IMG/VR virus record: IMGVR_UViG_2713896899_000006 | Location: 1-24,900 of that record | Length of the DNA stretch: 24,900 nt | From: a virus | Lineage: Duplodnaviria; Heunggongvirae; Uroviricota; Caudoviricetes | Strand: one strand, 5' to 3' | In this document: positions 9,231 through 15,129 of the stretch, one piece after another | How the letters are laid out: each line of letters starts with the position of its first letter | Position numbering within the stretch: position 1 is the first letter of the stretch | Notes under the pieces: model-generated | Seen by the model: only the letters and a program-made list of their open reading frames with translations | Database searches by the model: none | Told to the model about the DNA's origin: nothing | Program-made: the position numbers and the translations under genes

Positions 9231-10334
9231 ATGAGAAGACCGGACTGGGGGGCGTTGCAGCAGGAATATATTGCTGAATACACCCGCTCCGGTGTATCTC
9301 CGGTGGCGTGGTGTGAAGCAAAGGGACTGAATTACGCAACAGCCCGTCGTTACATCAAGAAACCTCCGAAAAATGCGCAGACAGAAGTGCGCAAAACTGC
9401 GCAAAAAAGTGCGCGAAAAAAAACTGCGCAGACTGCGCAGACTGCGCAAAAGCAAAACGGAAAATCTCAGAAAAAAAAGCCTGTATCCGATGCACTCCTG
9501 ATTGAGGGGGACACGGAAGAAATTTCGTTCTGCCCCGATGAATTCGGTATTTCTGACCAGCAGGCAAAATTCGCCATGTTGGTTGCTCAGGGGAAAAAGC
9601 CGACAGAGGCATACCGCCTGGCTGGTTACGAGGGGCAAGGTGCGACAGCAAACAGCAATGCCAGTCGTATGCTTAGAAATGCCAGGGTTTTTCGTGCCAT
9701 CAGCTACTTTCGCAATCATTACCAGAAACGCTATACCGCAGACCTGGATTTACTGGTGAGTCAGTTGATGGCCATCGTGCAGGCTGATCCCAATCAGCTT
9801 GCGCAATTTCGCCGTGTTAACTGTCGCTATTGCTGGGGGGAGAATCACCTCTATCAGTGGCGCGATATAGCAGAATTTGACAGGGCTGCCGCGCAGGCAT
9901 CCAAAGATGGTAAACCAGAACCTGAATATGGTGGCCTCGGTTTCGTTGATAGCGCCATACCAAATCCAGACTGTCCGAAATGCGGTGGAGAAGGTACAGG
10001 TCAGCTTTATATGGCTGATACCACTTTGCTTGATGGAAATGCGCGGCAATTGTATGCAGGAGCAAAGCTCGGAAAATTCGGCGTTGAGATCCTGCTGGAG
10101 AATAAAGCTGCCGCCCGGCGTGAATTATTGCGTTTGCTTTCCGCTGGCGGGGCATTATGTGCAGATAAGCGACTACAGGAACTGGAAATTGAACGGCGCA
10201 GAATGGAAAACCAGAAACTGCGCAAAGAGATCGAAACGGTGGAGGGTAATGAACATCCCCAGCCTGTGGCGATCAATATTAATGTAGTTGATGCCAGAGT
10301 GAGGAGTGATGAAGATGATCTCTCCGACGCTTAA
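9231..10334 (+). CDS. terminase small subunit (Terminase_2-like core) with N-terminal HTH, low-complexity K/Q/T/A linker and C-terminal CxxC...CxxC region, 367 aa
   Basis: Segment QQAKFAMLVAQGKKPTEAYRLAGYEGQGATANSNASRMLRNARVFRAI matches the Terminase_2 small-subunit pattern from memory; directly upstream of and overlapping the large terminase. Confidence 0.7.
   Translation: MRRPDWGALQQEYIAEYTRSGVSPVAWCEAKGLNYATARRYIKKPPKNAQTEVRKTAQKSARKKTAQTAQTAQKQNGKSQKKKPVSDALLIEGDTEEISFCPDEFGISDQQAKFAMLVAQGKKPTEAYRLAGYEGQGATANSNASRMLRNARVFRAISYFRNHYQKRYTADLDLLVSQLMAIVQADPNQLAQFRRVNCRYCWGENHLYQWRDIAEFDRAAAQASKDGKPEPEYGGLGFVDSAIPNPDCPKCGGEGTGQLYMADTTLLDGNARQLYAGAKLGKFGVEILLENKAAARRELLRLLSAGGALCADKRLQELEIERRRMENQKLRKEIETVEGNEHPQPVAININVVDARVRSDEDDLSDA
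9374..9448. repeat. cluster of six exact TGCGCA palindromic hexamers plus one TGCGCG variant within 75 bp, inside the terS coding sequence
   Basis: TGCGCA at 9374, 9388, 9398, 9425, 9434, 9443 and TGCGCG at 9410, spaced 9-15 bp; encodes the TAQTAQTAQ low-complexity linker. Confidence 0.8.
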
Positions 10335-12624
10335 TGTGCCTCAGGCGCGATTTCTTTCTATGCCTCATAAATTTAAAGCCTATGTTGCTGGTTTTGGTTG
10401 CCTGAGGGGAAGTACGCCTGTGGTTACAGAGAATGGGATTCTACCCATTCAGGAAATAACTCGACCAATGCGCGTTTTATCTTGGTCGGATGAGAATAAT
10501 CGATTTGAGCTTTCGCTAAGTGGTGGTGCGTACCCAAAAGGTGTGGCGAATCTATACCGAGTAGTGACGCAGCGAGGAGAATTTGTAGCAAGCGGACATC
10601 ACCGCGTTTTTTGCGCTGACGGTAGCTATCGATCTGTGGATAGTCTGGACGAATCGGTGAAGGTATTTGCATCTTCGCAAAACCTTCTTCTGACCAGTTT
10701 GGCCGCCGTCCCGAAATCGTTGCACGCAGGTGATCCACGTTTGAATCAAAAACTCGCAGATTACTTGGGTTGTTATGCAGATGAAGCCCGTCGATATGGT
10801 CAACAACTTCTGATGGCAGCAGATAACGCCCCAGCTTCTTTTCAGCGATCAAACGATGTTCAAACATCATGCCTGTTCTGCGCATATATGGATGGTCAGC
10901 AGGCGCTGGAGCAACGGCATATCCATCCAGATCAACAATTCGACCACCACGAAAGCTGGGGTTCAACTCACCCTTTCTGGCGCCACGGGAGAGCCGGTTG
11001 GTGTTGTGAATTCGGAGAATATTTTGAACGTGCTTTTCTGTGCAACCAACTTCCGCCGCGATCTCTGCCGACGTACGGTGACCATCAGCAAGAGCGAGGA
11101 TTCTGTCCTTCGCACTTTCTCGAGGGGCAGGCTTCTGGCGTTGTTTCAGCGTTAACCCATAACGAGATATGCAACGATAAACATGACTACGGTCACAACC
11201 TGCCAGAGAAGCAACTTCTGAAACGGTACGTTCTGGATGTGCTAAATCACAAATTAAATGGTCAAGAGGCGTCAAAACCAAACGCCTTAATCGAAACCTG
11301 CAACATATTGAGTGTAACACTGTTGCAGGAGGCCGAGCCATATTATGACCTCCAGGTATTGGATAATAACTGCTACGTAACTGCTGATGGGACGATTCAT
11401 CACAATAGCGGTAAAACATGGGTTGGGTGTGGTGGCATATGTAAGGGGATTTGGGAGCATCCGGGTATCAATCAGGGATATTTTGCGCCTACATATCCAC
11501 AAATTCGCGATATTTTTTATCCTACAGTTGAAGAAGTTGCTGCCGACTGGGGGCTAAATGTAAAAATTAACGAGGGAAATAAAGAAGTTCATTTTTATTA
11601 CGGACGTCAGTATCGGGGAACCACTATCTGCAGATCGATGGAGAAGCCACAAACGATCGTCGGTTTCAAAATTGGTAATGCGCTGGTGGATGAACTGGAC
11701 ATTTTGCCGAAGGAAAAAGCCAGAACAGCGTGGCGCAAGATAATTGCGCGTATGCGTTATAAGGTTGATGGACTTCGTAACGGTATTGACGTTACAACCA
11801 CGCCGGAAGGATTCAAATTTGTCTACGAACAGTTTGTTAAAGCCGTACGTGAAAAAACAGAGCTGGCCTCACTGTATGGCCTGGTACAGGCATCTACTTT
11901 CGATAATGAAAAGAATTTGCCAGCAGATTACATTCCCTCGCTCCTTGAGTCATATCCTCCAGAGCTGATTAAAGCCTATCTTCGGGGACAGTTTACTAAC
12001 CTGACAAGTGGTACTGTTTACCATCAGTTTGACCGAAAACTGAATAATTGCGAAGAAGAGGAACAGCCAGGTGAGCCGATATATATCGGGATGGATTTTA
12101 ACGTCGGAAAAATGGCTGGAGTCGTTCATGTGTTACGTTTTGGGCTTCCATGCGCAGTAACTGAAATCATTAACGCTTACGATACACCAGATATGATCCG
12201 TATTATTAAAGAGCGCTTCTGGTTATATGACGGGAATGATTATCGGAAAGTAAGGGAAATTTATATTTATCCTGATGCATCCGGGGATTCCAGAAAATCA
12301 AATAACGCAAGTGCGACGGATATTGCTCAGCTTAAACAGGCTGGTTTTAACGTTGTTGTAAACAGTTCGAACCCGCCAGTAAAAGATCGCGTTAACTCAA
12401 TGAATGCAATGTTCTGCAATGCCAATGGTGAGCGTCGCTATAAAGTTAATGTGAAGCGTTGTCCGGTATATGCCGAATCTCTGGAGCAACAGGTCTGGGA
12501 TGATAAGGGTGAGCCTGATAAAAAATCTGGTAACGATCACCCGAATGATGCCGGAGGTTATTTTATTGTTAAGCAATTCCCTATTGTCAAACCGACCGGA
12601 AGAGTTACATCACTTCGGATTTAA
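10306..12624 (+). CDS. terminase large subunit precursor (772 aa) containing a 336-aa intein inserted in the Walker A P-loop
   Basis: Exteins join as ...AYVAGFG|SGKTWVGCGG... (Walker A GFGSGKT) with Walker B-like ALVDELD downstream; the rest of the protein has the layout expected of a terminase ATPase/nuclease. Confidence 0.85.
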   Translation: MMKMISPTLNVPQARFLSMPHKFKAYVAGFGCLRGSTPVVTENGILPIQEITRPMRVLSWSDENNRFELSLSGGAYPKGVANLYRVVTQRGEFVASGHHRVFCADGSYRSVDSLDESVKVFASSQNLLLTSLAAVPKSLHAGDPRLNQKLADYLGCYADEARRYGQQLLMAADNAPASFQRSNDVQTSCLFCAYMDGQQALEQRHIHPDQQFDHHESWGSTHPFWRHGRAGWCCEFGEYFERAFLCNQLPPRSLPTYGDHQQERGFCPSHFLEGQASGVVSALTHNEICNDKHDYGHNLPEKQLLKRYVLDVLNHKLNGQEASKPNALIETCNILSVTLLQEAEPYYDLQVLDNNCYVTADGTIHHNSGKTWVGCGGICKGIWEHPGINQGYFAPTYPQIRDIFYPTVEEVAADWGLNVKINEGNKEVHFYYGRQYRGTTICRSMEKPQTIVGFKIGNALVDELDILPKEKARTAWRKIIARMRYKVDGLRNGIDVTTTPEGFKFVYEQFVKAVREKTELASLYGLVQASTFDNEKNLPADYIPSLLESYPPELIKAYLRGQFTNLTSGTVYHQFDRKLNNCEEEEQPGEPIYIGMDFNVGKMAGVVHVLRFGLPCAVTEIINAYDTPDMIRIIKERFWLYDGNDYRKVREIYIYPDASGDSRKSNNASATDIAQLKQAGFNVVVNSSNPPVKDRVNSMNAMFCNANGERRYKVNVKRCPVYAESLEQQVWDDKGEPDKKSGNDHPNDAGGYFIVKQFPIVKPTGRVTSLRI
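10399..11406 (+). other. intein (protein-splicing element) within terL, 336 aa
   Basis: Starts with Cys in block-A-like CLRGSTPVVTENG; block-B-like TxxH (ASGHHRVF) about 65 residues in; ends with block F/G-like YYDLQVLDNNCYVTADGTIHHN followed by +1 Ser; insertion exactly splits the P-loop. Confidence 0.8.
10424..11341 (-). CDS. HNH (HNH_3-like) homing endonuclease with two HTH-like motifs, 305 aa, encoded antisense within the terL intein
   Basis: Minus-strand ORF (track 10424..11419) with HRLIAEKKLGRYLLPSEVVDHIDGLHLHNNPSNLRVFDSNVDHL, a strong match to the HNH_3 signature; I verified the reverse-complement translation of 10730-10810 by hand. GGAGG lies 7 nt upstream of the ATG at 11341 on the minus strand. 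Confidence 0.7.
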   Translation of the reverse strand: MARPPATVLHSICCRFRLRRLVLTPLDHLICDLAHPERTVSEVASLAGCDRSHVYRCISRYGLTLKQRQKPAPRESAKDRILALADGHRTSAEIAAEVGCTEKHVQNILRIHNTNRLSRGARKGELNPSFRGGRIVDLDGYAVAPAPADHPYMRRTGMMFEHRLIAEKKLGRYLLPSEVVDHIDGLHLHNNPSNLRVFDSNVDHLRATISGRRPNWSEEGFAKMQIPSPIRPDYPQIDSYRQRKKRGDVRLLQILLAASLLGIDSPHLLGTHHHLAKAQIDYSHPTKIKRALVELFPEWVESHSL

Positions 12625-12626
12625 TT

Positions 12627-14033
12627 ATGGCTGATATATCAACACCCAACCTCGACTATAACGATATGCTGGAGGCGTGGGATATTAACGACGCACTGAT
12701 GGGTGGCACGCTTGAAATGCGCAGGCAGGGGAAAAATTATCTCCCTAAATGGCCTAATGAAGATGAAGACACATATAAAAAACGCTTGTCTGTGGCTACG
12801 CTACTTCCTGTGTATGAAGAAAGTATTAAGCAAAATATTGGGCGCATATTTGCAGAGCCGACAGTGCTGAGTGAAGAGACGCCGGAAAAAATCAGGGAAT
12901 ATGCAGAAAATATCGACATGGAGGGGAGTCGACTGGATGTGTGGGCGCAGCAATTTTTCTGTCTAGCGCTTCAGTATGGCGTGGCGCATGCGCTGGTGGA
13001 TTATCCTCGAACAGATATGAAAGGGATTCGGACAAAAGCTGATGAAAATGCGGTTGGTAGTCGCCCATACGTTACGATGCTGAATCCCCGTCAGGTTATT
13101 GGGTGGAAATCGAAAGTTGAAAAAGGAAAAGTTGTTCTCACAGATTTGCGTATAAAAGAAGTCATCATTATCGATGGTGATGATTTCGGGCAGAAGAAGG
13201 TGGAGCAGATCCGCCATATCATGCCCCGTCGCGTTGAAATTTATCGACGCAGCGAAGGTACTAATGGTGAATCTGTCTGGACGCTTCACGAGTCATGGGA
13301 AACCAGCCGTGATGATATTCCCTTGGTAACGCTTTACACGAAGAAAATCGGGTTTATGCGCGGTACACCGCCATTGCTTAATCTTGGCTTGTTGAATATC
13401 AAGCACTGGCAAAGCCAGAGCGAGCAGGACAATATTCTGCATGTTGCTCGGGTTCCATTGCTGGTGGCTTACGGACTGGACAGGAACGAAGAACTGACGG
13501 TAGGAGCATCGACCGCGACGATTTTTGATGACAGGGCAAAAAATGGCCTTGAATATGTTGAGCATAGCGGTGCCGCGATAGAGTCTGGCGAAACATCTCT
13601 GGAGAAACTGGAAAATCAGATGCGTCATGCCGGCGCTAAACTTCTTCGGGCTGAAAATACATCCACTAAATCTGTGGATCAGACCAATGAAGAACGGATG
13701 CAGGAAAACTCGCCACTCTATACGATGGCAAATGCTCTCGAAGATGCTCTCGATAATATCCTCCAGATAATGGCAGAATGGATAGGTGAAAGCAGTGGCG
13801 GTAATGTGGATGTACGCACTCAACTGGATGTATCTGCCCAGATGTTTGACTCATCCTCCGCGCTGGCTGTTCAGTCATTGCGTCAGGGCGGTGATATACG
13901 TCAGATTGATGCGGTTCGGGTGTTGCAGGCGTTGAAATTTATCGATCAGGACTCCCGCCCAGAGGAAGTGATCGATGAATTAAAAAATCAGGGCGTAACG
14001 CTGATGGGAATCAATGATGCAAACAGTGAATGA
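12627..14033 (+). CDS. portal protein, 468 aa
   Basis: Position immediately after terL, size and acidic composition typical of portals; family not pinned down. Confidence 0.7.
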   Translation: MADISTPNLDYNDMLEAWDINDALMGGTLEMRRQGKNYLPKWPNEDEDTYKKRLSVATLLPVYEESIKQNIGRIFAEPTVLSEETPEKIREYAENIDMEGSRLDVWAQQFFCLALQYGVAHALVDYPRTDMKGIRTKADENAVGSRPYVTMLNPRQVIGWKSKVEKGKVVLTDLRIKEVIIIDGDDFGQKKVEQIRHIMPRRVEIYRRSEGTNGESVWTLHESWETSRDDIPLVTLYTKKIGFMRGTPPLLNLGLLNIKHWQSQSEQDNILHVARVPLLVAYGLDRNEELTVGASTATIFDDRAKNGLEYVEHSGAAIESGETSLEKLENQMRHAGAKLLRAENTSTKSVDQTNEERMQENSPLYTMANALEDALDNILQIMAEWIGESSGGNVDVRTQLDVSAQMFDSSSALAVQSLRQGGDIRQIDAVRVLQALKFIDQDSRPEEVIDELKNQGVTLMGINDANSE

Positions 14034-15129
14034 ACGGCTGCGTGATGAATCGATTGCCCATGCTATCTGGATATCTCGCTATAGCACAGGTGTAGCGGCC
14101 AGAATGGTGAAAACGCTGAACGACAGCGACGCAGAGCTTACAGCTCGTTTGCTGGTGGCTCTGGATAATCTTGGGCCGGGGAGTTTCACCGTTACGCGTC
14201 TGGAATCACTTCTGGTGAGTGTGAGGGAAGTTAACCGCACTGCTATTAACAGTATGTTTGCTCGTCTCTCAGGAGAGTTAAACGAGCTGGCGATATATGA
14301 GGCTAGCTATCAGTTAAGTCTGTTTGACTCTTTGCTTCCTGATTTTGTGGCGGATATTCATCCTCTGATTGGTATCTCACCTGACACCCTTTATGCCGCT
14401 GCAATGGCGCGTCCATTTCAGGGAAGACTACTCAACGAATGGGCCTCAGACCTTGAAGCAGATCGGCTCAGGCGTATTACAAATACGGTACGTCAGGGTT
14501 TTTTGCTGGGGGATACCAATGAGCAGATCGCAAGAAAAATTCGTGGGCATGTCAGCAAGGGATTTCAGGATGGTGCATTGCAGATGAGTCGAGTTAATGC
14601 GGCCAGTATTGCAAAAACAGCAGTTGGGCATCTTGCTGCTACTGCCCGTGAGAGTTTCGCCATGGCAAACAATGATTTGATAAAGGGCAAACAATGGTTA
14701 TCCACACTTGATAATCGTACTACACCACAGTGTCGAATCAGGGATCGCCTCAAATATACGCTGGATAATAAACCTATTGGTCACAAAGTACCTTATTTAC
14801 AGGGGCCGGGAAAAATTCATTTCTGCTGCCGTTCAACAGAAACGTTTATTCTGAAATCTGCGAAGGAACTGGGGATTGATGTTCGGGATGTTTCTCCTGC
14901 CGAGAGGGCAAGTATGGATGGGGTTGTAGCCGGAGATACGACTTACAAGGAATGGTTTTTGCGCCAGCCTTATGCCAGGCAAAAACAAATAGTGGGAGAA
15001 ACACGGGCAAAACTGATTCGTGATGGAGGTATGTCACCAGATGAATTTTACACCGATAAAGGTGAATGGTTGACGCTGGGACAACTCCGTGAGCGTGATG
15101 CTCAGGCATTCAGAAAAGCCGGGATTTAA
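14014..15129 (+). CDS. head morphogenesis protein (Mu gpF / SPP1 gp7-like minor head protein), 371 aa
   Basis: Follows portal with a 20-nt overlap; size and position match the Mu-F-like family of pac-type head modules; assignment by synteny and recall. Confidence 0.6.
   Translation: MMQTVNERLRDESIAHAIWISRYSTGVAARMVKTLNDSDAELTARLLVALDNLGPGSFTVTRLESLLVSVREVNRTAINSMFARLSGELNELAIYEASYQLSLFDSLLPDFVADIHPLIGISPDTLYAAAMARPFQGRLLNEWASDLEADRLRRITNTVRQGFLLGDTNEQIARKIRGHVSKGFQDGALQMSRVNAASIAKTAVGHLAATARESFAMANNDLIKGKQWLSTLDNRTTPQCRIRDRLKYTLDNKPIGHKVPYLQGPGKIHFCCRSTETFILKSAKELGIDVRDVSPAERASMDGVVAGDTTYKEWFLRQPYARQKQIVGETRAKLIRDGGMSPDEFYTDKGEWLTLGQLRERDAQAFRKAGI

Follow-up and report, generated by a model that had tools for sequence, protein, structure and literature searches.

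In the virus record IMGVR_UViG_2713896899_000006 of IMG/VR (Duplodnaviria; Heunggongvirae; Uroviricota; Caudoviricetes), the large terminase gene terL is very probably the seat of a mobile intein, which splits the P-loop codons of this prophage gene and whose endonuclease would be the product of a separate gene. The latter lies antisense within the intein, and encodes a protein of the I-HmuI type made of two helix-turn-helix (HTH) modules followed by an HNH core. The window analysed in this work is the whole stretch of 24,900 nucleotides (nt), positions 1 to 24,900 of the record. The reading rests on the exact fit of the insert between the halves of intein-less alleles, on the splicing residues conserved at its ends, on the HNH protein conserved on the other strand, and on the traces of selection left in both reading frames. 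The features referred to below, open reading frames (ORFs) and domains, are the following, lengths and residue positions of proteins being given in amino acids (aa).

10306-12624, plus strand: TerL precursor ORF, 772 aa; residues 368-756 match Pfam Terminase_6N (1e-30) and Terminase_6C (4.7e-10).
10306-10398, plus strand: terL N-extein.
10399-11406, plus strand: intein, 1008 nt, 336 codons, Cys1...His-His-Asn336 with +1 Ser, between AGFG and SGKT of the Walker A motif.
10399-10674, plus strand: N-terminal HINT splicing domain, intein aa 1-92, with blocks A and B and the invariant residues C1, T10, G13, G60 and H68.
10675-11289, plus strand: intein centre, an unconserved spacer of ~200 aa in the terL frame; residues 146-296 predicted disordered.
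11290-11406, plus strand: C-terminal HINT part, intein aa 298-336, with blocks F and G; YYDLQV...NNCYVTADGTIHHN.
11407-12624, plus strand: terL C-extein.
10424-11341, minus strand: HNH endonuclease ORF, 305 aa, ATG at 11341 and stop at 10424-10426.
10424-11419, minus strand: longer form of the HNH ORF, 331 aa, open to ATG 11419; it corresponds to the PGAP call.
10424-11275, minus strand: conserved core of the HNH gene, 283 aa, starting at TTG 11275; N-terminus TPLDHLICDL...
11009-11269, minus strand: two helix-turn-helix modules of the HNH protein, aa ~25-61 and 78-111 (305-aa numbering), from Pfam HTH matches and AF2 helices.
10715-10924, minus strand: HNH catalytic core, aa ~140-209, with invariant G140, Y141, H162, R163, D181, H182, D184, H189, N190, N194 and N201.
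10427-10666, minus strand: C-terminal helical domain of the HNH protein, aa 226-305, antisense to the N-terminal splicing domain of the intein.
10462-10674, both frames: dual-constraint zone, intein nt 63-276, with purifying selection on either frame.
11349-11353, minus strand: GGAGG, 7 nt 5' of ATG 11341, within the D-L-Q codons of intein block F.
11285-11288, minus strand: AAGG(CG), Shine-Dalgarno-like, 5' of TTG 11275.

The 336-codon intein reported in a preliminary description of this DNA is an exact insertion of 1008 nt. Ten phage records carry an intein-less terL with 93% identity, which is matched in two pieces spanning 1311 nt, that is 2319 minus 1008. The insert is placed at 10399-11406, where it splits Walker A, because intein-less alleles join the flanks exactly (AGFG/SGKT). 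The protein of Salmonella phage SPF_0923 reads ...KAYIAGFG/SGKTWVGCGGIC..., and the window ...KAYVAGFG/CLRGSTP...TIHHN/SGKTWVGCGGIC...; the P-loop fragment of the intein-less phage terL is ...GCTGGTTTTGGCTCGGGCAAAACATGG.... The class-1 residues checked, namely Cys1, the block-B His, the final His-Asn and the +1 Ser, are all present. In an alignment of 50 intein translations the first ~90 and the last ~35 residues are strongly conserved, with C1, T10, G13, G60, H68, V320, Y326, G331, H334, H335 and N336 invariant, and the stretch between is unalignable; the +1 residue after the insert is Ser, Thr or Cys at every locus. A Pfam Intein_splicing match at E <=0.01 was obtained for 41 of the 50 family members (best 3e-9), and the family profile matches solved inteins such as Spl DnaX (7cfv, 1.9e-4) and Ssp DnaB (1mi8, 1.4e-3). 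The best PDB match of this profile, the designed repeat protein 7rdr, was discarded as spurious, as it consists of many weak repeats on the unconserved centre.

The fold predicted for the terL-frame product agrees with these data. The AlphaFold2 (AF2) model was built on 7 sequences, the search with the plus-frame protein having given 6 relatives. Its confidence (pLDDT, the score predicted for the local distance difference test) is 83-94 over residues 1-92 and 298-336 (83-93 in the beta-rich N-terminal splicing domain, 85-94 in the C-terminal part), 54-73 over residues 93-145, and <50 over residues 146-296. Foldseek returned 26 matches at E <=1e-3 for the whole model, all of them inteins, Hedgehog or BIL domains, headed by 7cfv, 1mi8 and 4o1r. 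The N-terminal splicing domain retrieved DnaX, DnaB and DnaE inteins, and the best matches of the model are mini-inteins. The 92 N-terminal and the 39 C-terminal residues are thus predicted to form a mini-intein HINT fold, and the centre, as modelled, is an unconserved linker of ~200 residues, ~150 of which are predicted disordered, with no folded endonuclease, in agreement with what had been surmised from the composition of the plus frame. In the terL frame of the centre only the stop-free status is kept. A moderately conserved patch stands out within this unconserved plus-frame centre (YADEARRYGQQLL, intein aa ~126-138, window 10774-10812). It is probably a by-product of the invariant HNH catalytic motif on the opposite strand; the same patch also produced the spurious 7rdr match.

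The codons flanking the insertion (window 10396-10398 and 11407-11412, compared with ~1590-1605 of the intein-less locus L099) differ synonymously between intein-bearing and intein-less allele, being GGT vs GGC for Gly-1, AGC vs TCG for Ser+1 and GGT vs GGC for Gly+2. AGC or AGT is the Ser+1 codon in 46 of the 74 distinct flanks of the family. The consensus of the extein flanks revealed nothing past the codon constraints of Walker A, and no recognition site could be proposed from it.

The 305-codon minus-strand ORF is entirely contained within the bounds of the intein, and the host frame is uninterrupted. Its product exceeds the Pfam gathering cut-offs for HNH_3 (27.7 bits vs 24.8), as well as for HTH_29, HTH_28 and HTH_23; both the HNH_3 signature and the two HTH-like segments recognised by eye in the earlier reading hence stand. 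The protein also matches PHROG 10730 (phrog_10730, 'HNH endonuclease') at 5e-49, and the catalytic residues H162, D181, H182, H189, N190, N194 and N201 are unvarying in 96 sequences. Its structure model is I-HmuI-like, and displays the beta-beta-alpha-metal fold; a sequence-profile search of the PDB with the HNH family profile gave only HTH and designed-repeat matches. I-HmuI, a nicking enzyme, is encoded on the sense strand of a group I intron, and its DNA-binding modules come after the HNH domain. The window protein, by contrast, has its two HTH modules ahead of the HNH core, and ends in a helical domain peculiar to the family. The HTH modules show a weak Foldseek likeness, not significant, to the bipartite DNA-binding domains of Tc1/mariner. 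The C-terminal helical domain is modelled at pLDDT 89-95, and features the conserved columns G247, R250, L255, S265, G270 and I280. The minus-strand protein is thus confidently folded in the model, and is under purifying selection, in line with the earlier suggestion that the endonuclease is supplied from the opposite strand.

Where translation of this protein would begin needs some comment. In the preliminary description the start was set at ATG 11341, with GGAGG 7 nt upstream; the position of the motif was correct, but the start conserved in the family is TTG 11275, which yields 283 aa. A start codon 128-131 nt inside the 3' end of the intein recurs across the family with GGAG or GGAGG 6-9 nt upstream, and most relatives begin with M-T/S-x-L at the column of TTG 11275. 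The close relative at locus L024 must start at the conserved position, because a stop codon separates this from the upstream ATG. In the model, the 305-aa form begins with 22 additional residues that are disordered (residues 1-18 have pLDDT <50); they are weakly constrained in either frame. The GGAGG 5' of ATG 11341 is conserved only among the closest relatives (82% identity or more), and the D-L-Q codons of intein block F may account for its presence. Translation in the window could begin at either codon, but 11275 is the conserved start, which that of the 305-aa form probably is not.

The coexistence of two long open frames had been taken as a sign that both are constrained, on the ground that a stop-free stretch of this length has a probability of about (61/64)^330. 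The arithmetic is right, but the null is not the proper one, since synonymous shuffles provide a better term of comparison. Synonymous codons were permuted within the HNH gene, holding protein and codon set fixed, in 5000 shuffles per locus. For the window 8.55 stops are expected in the terL frame, and 0 of the 5000 shuffles were stop-free. In 11 diverse loci the expected stops range from 4.6 to 11.6, stop-free shuffles from 0 to 0.18%, and the stops observed are 0 everywhere. Both frames are therefore kept open by selection, a conclusion further sustained by codon-position and four-fold-site patterns. The comparison of substitutions in both frames of related terL loci, which the preliminary description had advised, revealed three regimes. 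First positions of terL codons face first positions of HNH codons, second positions of terL face third ones of HNH, and third positions of terL face second ones of HNH. Variability was measured as mean pairwise difference in a gap-free set of 14 distinct 336-codon inteins, 73-100% identical, with the following results.

N-extein: terL position 1, 0.19; position 2, 0.18; position 3, 0.49.
C-extein: terL position 1, 0.13; position 2, 0.07; position 3, 0.47.
Intein nt 945-1008: terL position 1, 0.06; position 2, 0.04 (0.035); position 3, 0.35 (0.354).
Intein nt 252-882: terL position 2 (HNH position 3), 0.15-0.49; terL position 3 (HNH position 2), 0.007-0.14.
Intein nt 63-252: terL position 1, 0.03-0.10; position 2, 0.06-0.08; position 3, 0.05-0.11.
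Four-fold sites of the terL frame: exteins, 0.51-0.57; intein nt 63-276, 0.055.
Four-fold sites of the HNH frame: centre, 0.36; overlap zone, 0.06-0.07.

According to these values, ordinary terL-frame selection prevails in the exteins and over the 63 nt with which the intein ends. The centre of the intein carries the signature of selection on the HNH frame, and the amino acids of the terL frame change freely there. Over ~70 codons, the N-terminal splicing domain of the intein and the C-terminal domain of the HNH protein are constrained simultaneously; the silent sites of either frame are frozen where the other frame needs them too. The joint functional constraint of both frames over the N-terminal splicing domain, as deduced from these patterns, is an aspect overlooked in the preliminary description. 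The same three regimes were found in an independent subgroup, the 290-codon inteins of environmental viral contigs, with the overlap pattern extending over nt 60-180.

The element is widespread. The HNH protein has 462 related protein clusters, and scans with the HNH alignment identified 15 genome loci and 80 of 311 IMG/VR viral stretches. The loci examined, counting the window, number 99. In 97, whose HNH identity goes as low as 39%, the frame opposite the HNH gene has no stop over the full HNH match; its phase is the same throughout, and it extends further for 1,200-1,700 nt where the contig permits, as expected of the terL C-extein. Of the remaining two, one is cut by a contig end and the other is a free-standing homologue (L018). 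The terL ORF of the window is a single continuous 772-codon frame, and relatives are likewise continuous. Junctions in the 97 loci conform to G-x-x-G/C...HHN/[S/T/C]-G-K-[S/T], three having S-[S/T]-K, and the flanking TerL lineages are many and unrelated (VAGFG..SGKTWVGC, MGPVG..SGKSVTCS, GGRG..SGKSW, others). Interruption of the minus-strand ORF in relatives that keep the intein had been indicated as what would speak against the arrangement. Of 79 unique inteins, only a few lack an intact ORF, and in the main family the ORF stops 13-49 nt inside the 5' end of the intein. In a distant DNA search, eight records of Pectobacterium/Dickeya phages (Ymer group) were found to share the layout, as was Pseudoalteromonas phage PHS3. 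Ymer and PHS3 were inspected, and a long plus-strand ORF runs in both through a minus-strand HNH ORF of 232-236 aa, in the same relative phase. In Ymer-genus phages and PHS3 the arrangement resides in the sole terL. Ymer-genus phages are propagated lytic phages, in which terL was annotated by hand; it can be argued that the interrupted terL yields an active terminase, because plaque-forming phages have it in their only terL copy.

The distribution is sporadic. Among 5426 complete E. coli genomes, 777 host an intein-less terL (C-extein 90-95% identical), and only one, that of strain MEI003, has the insert. HNH identity and splicing-domain identity are correlated across the family (r 0.91). In many pairs the C-exteins are 17-24% identical, and the parts of the element 50-58%; in some pairs the exteins are 91-95% identical, and the elements 64-69%. 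Sporadic presence, incongruence between element and extein, and decayed copies fit, at the sequence level, a homing element that invades, spreads and decays. As to the last, a 224-aa intein is found at locus L097 (3376-4047, minus strand of the locus) in the same terL lineage. Its HNH gene is partly deleted, with 170 stop-free codons and no ATG, and the element looks like one decaying towards a mini-intein. The full arrangement was also found on a contig labelled as a metagenome-assembled genome (MAG) of a Thermoplasmata archaeon (L010, PUPH01000035.1), and MAGs of Phycisphaerae, Zetaproteobacteria, Desulfobulbaceae and Paracoccaceae contributed other loci. These labels could reflect either a truly broad host range, or viral contigs binned there.

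Other explanations have been considered. The one best surviving, though unlikely, is that the HNH protein is used for purposes other than homing, as a terminase accessory nuclease (cos/terS-adjacent, HK97-like) or an HTH regulator, or that the antisense RNA regulates terL. HNH genes adjoining terminase genes are a known association, according to PMC3592412, the protein has two HTH modules, and an antisense RNA over terL would inevitably meet late transcription. The close intein-less relatives, that is the 10 phage records, several of which have been deposited as phages, and the 777 E. coli genomes, are nonetheless devoid of the HNH gene. This sets the element apart from the packaging HNH of the HK97 gp74 type, which as a packaging factor next to terS or cos would be expected in every member of the phage group. 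Moreover, across unrelated TerL lineages the HNH gene travels and diverges together with the splicing domains, as a unit, and fold and domain layout are those of the I-HmuI / HNH_3 family, unlike those of short packaging HNH proteins.

That the intein is active and the minus-strand ORF a decaying, unexpressed relic, conserved only through the constraint on the intein frame, is quite improbable. A promoter for the HNH gene was not identified, the window lacks an ATG at the conserved start, and degraded copies such as L097 exist. Yet over the central 600 nt the intein frame is unconserved, and the second positions of HNH codons vary far less than the third ones; the invariance of the catalytic residues, the intactness of the ORF in nearly all unique inteins, and the recurrence of a start with a GGAG site hardly suit a relic. 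Very improbable, too, is the scenario implied by the RefSeq annotation, in which terL would have been killed by the insertion of a free-standing HNH gene, the open plus frame being incidental. PGAP does treat the E. coli MEI003 copy as an HNH endonuclease plus a terL pseudogene, the window intein is under the cut-offs of curated hidden Markov models, and the plus frame is matched by only 6 database proteins. Against such a scenario, the plus frame is open in nearly all loci, down to the most divergent HNH genes, where shuffles expect several stops; the intein termini bear terL-frame selection, a HINT fold and canonical junction residues; and propagated lytic phages live with the insert in their sole terL. 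Some group I introns hold antisense endonuclease genes, and introns are common in phage genes, but a group I or group II intron removed as RNA is close to inconceivable here, as a host frame open through the entire insert would be needless for an intron, the insert ends are intein blocks with a HINT fold, and no Rfam family matched positions 9800-12000 at E up to 1.

A homing intein with an antisense endonuclease gene thus accounts best for the data, and the cycle may be envisaged as follows. Translation of the precursor would run on across the complement of the HNH gene, and its two HINT halves would associate round the disordered linker and splice, restoring AGFG-SGKT. An antisense transcript, probably at a time other than that of late terL transcription, would give rise to the HNH protein, which would recognise the uninterrupted P-loop region of an intein-less terL via its HTH and C-terminal modules. 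It would then nick or cut this gene close to its P-loop codons, in a phage or prophage sharing the same cell, and recombinational repair from the intein-bearing copy would transfer intein and HNH gene together.

Some points weigh against this interpretation. The profile searches that had been recommended for both proteins gave an uneven outcome. HNH_3 is above its cut-off and the intein family profile matches known inteins, but the window intein itself falls under curated cut-offs (Pfam Intein_splicing 16.5-18.3 bits vs 35.8, TIGR01445 12.8 vs 24.5). The window intein is a divergent member of the family, a curated cut-off being a detection convention rather than a biological criterion. At the conserved start the window has TTG 11275 with a weakened AAGGCG, where the closest relatives have AAGGAG. 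No sigma-70-type minus-strand promoter was found in 10200-11800 (0 sites), and the three weak sites in 11250-14200 are below shuffle counts, so that no HNH promoter could be assigned in these intervals. Splicing, the antisense transcript, production of the HNH protein and cleavage of the intein-less site are all deduced from sequence. Finally, purifying selection on the HNH frame tells that the protein is used, and does not establish a homing role.

The claim that an antisense endonuclease in an intein had never been described does not hold. Antisense LAGLIDADG endonucleases are on record for the inteins of Synechocystis DnaX and of a Chloroflexus SpoVR-like protein (Gorbalenya 1998 and Gogarten 2002, as quoted by Gosselin et al. 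in a 2025 preprint, bioRxiv 10.1101/2025.01.02.630785). The preprint itself describes actinophage inteins, several of them located in terL, whose antisense endonucleases are of the LAGLIDADG and VSR-like types. The out-of-frame endonuclease of a cyanobacterial dnaX intein has been the subject of a frame-specific selection analysis (bioRxiv 10.64898/2026.09.14.751524). As in the antisense-LAGLIDADG inteins of the DnaX type, in the window the endonuclease gene lies within the intein and outside the host frame, which is left open; as in the latter dnaX study, in the overlap the endonuclease frame is constrained and the host frame relaxed. Differences concern the endonuclease family, which is HNH in the window, and the host gene, which is a phage terL instead of a bacterial chromosomal gene. 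Also, the accounts of the antisense-LAGLIDADG inteins cited in the 2025 preprint report no dual-constraint overlap with the splicing domain, such as the window element has.

The actinophage inteins of Gosselin et al. are also close in organization, being phage-borne, located in many instances in terL, and hosting an endonuclease gene of free-standing type nested in antisense. These authors, too, proposed that a free-standing endonuclease gene had invaded an intein, and argued likewise that splicing of terL must still take place. Their HNH cases are, however, all in frame, and no antisense HNH is listed, while the HNH of the window is antisense; their second ORFs are typically outside the splicing domain, while here the HNH gene shares ~70-80 codons with the N-terminal HINT domain, both frames being constrained. 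Furthermore, hosts are mostly phages and prophages of Proteobacteria, in place of actinophages, and the family is large (311 IMG/VR stretches, 462 clusters). Other partial parallels exist. Fractured genes (Dassa et al. 2009, PMC2677866) likewise have a free-standing-type endonuclease gene between intein splicing parts, one terminase case included; they consist of two host ORFs joined by trans splicing and carry GIY-YIG or VSR-like enzymes, whereas the window has a continuous host ORF and an antisense HNH. The methylase insertion of phage ShiLan (PMC11855218) also conceals an HNH in another frame and leaves the host frame open, but that HNH shares the strand of its host gene, splicing domains could not be detected, and the insert is thought to be retained as a protein loop. 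The mycobacteriophage TerL1-a intein occupies the classic P-loop site between Lys and Thr, in contrast to the window insertion, which precedes the Ser of G-x-x-G-S-G-K-T. No report of an antisense HNH in an intein was found in a literature search that missed most subscription journals, so that this absence is no proof. The HNH in antisense position, the size and host range of the family, and the long dual-constraint overlap with the splicing domain nevertheless appear new.

How the overlap arose is a matter of conjecture. A tentative proposal, which falls somewhat short of an even chance, is that the C-terminal domain of the HNH protein (~80 aa) arose by overprinting the antisense strand of the intein N-terminal splicing domain, whence ~70 codons would specify two folded, co-evolving domains on opposite strands. 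Only 34 representatives of this C-terminal domain were found among 1.84 billion proteins, invariably at the C-terminus of proteins of <=303 aa. A weak multi-stretch match to an 837-aa protein was taken as spurious. The locus L018 (3267-4202, Calditrichia MAG) encodes a free-standing HTH-HTH-HNH homologue of 311 aa, 32% identical, which is not accompanied by an antisense ORF; no similarity was found between the HNH C-terminal domain and the C-terminus of this protein. L018 could resemble the ancestor that invaded an intein. In the divergent subgroup L013-L017 the antisense HNH gene encodes 187-251 aa, and stops 145-241 nt inside the intein, with far less overlap with the N-terminal splicing domain. 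Within the subgroup, the host frame of L016 spans 4-2244 on the minus strand and its HNH gene 1329-1928 on the plus strand, and L014 has a stop-free host frame of 1418 codons. All this is compatible with a speculative path in which a free-standing HNH gene invaded a mini-intein in antisense, and later extended its frame over the HINT N-domain.

The terL ORF of the window opens with GTG-ATG-AAG-ATG (MMKM, 10306-10317), and the intein-less phage record starts at the equivalent of ATG 10315 (MISPTL...); the beginning of the ORF overlaps the 3' end of a terS-like ORF (9231-10334). In the E. coli MEI003 genome (L001 4045-6332; NZ_CP071263.1 151257-153544) RefSeq/PGAP annotates a 331-aa HNH protein, and terL as a pseudogene 'missing N-terminus'; intein and N-extein are devoid of annotation. 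More generally, the intein frame, on the plus strand, has 6 matching protein clusters among 5.8 billion, as opposed to the 462 of the HNH frame on the minus strand, and PHROGs include the HNH family (phrog_10730) and nothing for the intein. Evidently, in gene calling the HNH ORF is retained at the expense of the precursor, and terL is left truncated or as a pseudogene. As a consequence of this systematic annotation error, prophages and phages may be scored as lacking an intact terminase.

HNH is the third endonuclease family found among inteins with an antisense endonuclease, and the arrangement is not rare, as shown by the number of IMG/VR stretches and protein clusters in which the family is represented. 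The tolerance of the intein for a predicted disordered insert of ~200 residues may interest protein engineers, and the element is relevant to the 'splicing first, endonuclease invades later' model for how inteins originated. It also provides a natural case of long antisense dual coding with three measurable selection regimes, useful to investigate how overlapping genes originate and persist. If the C-terminal domain of the HNH protein did arise by overprinting, the element would be a selfish gene constrained in three ways, by the HNH sequence, by the open terL frame and by the HINT sequence, abundant in phages of the Proteobacteria type, and hidden by gene callers.

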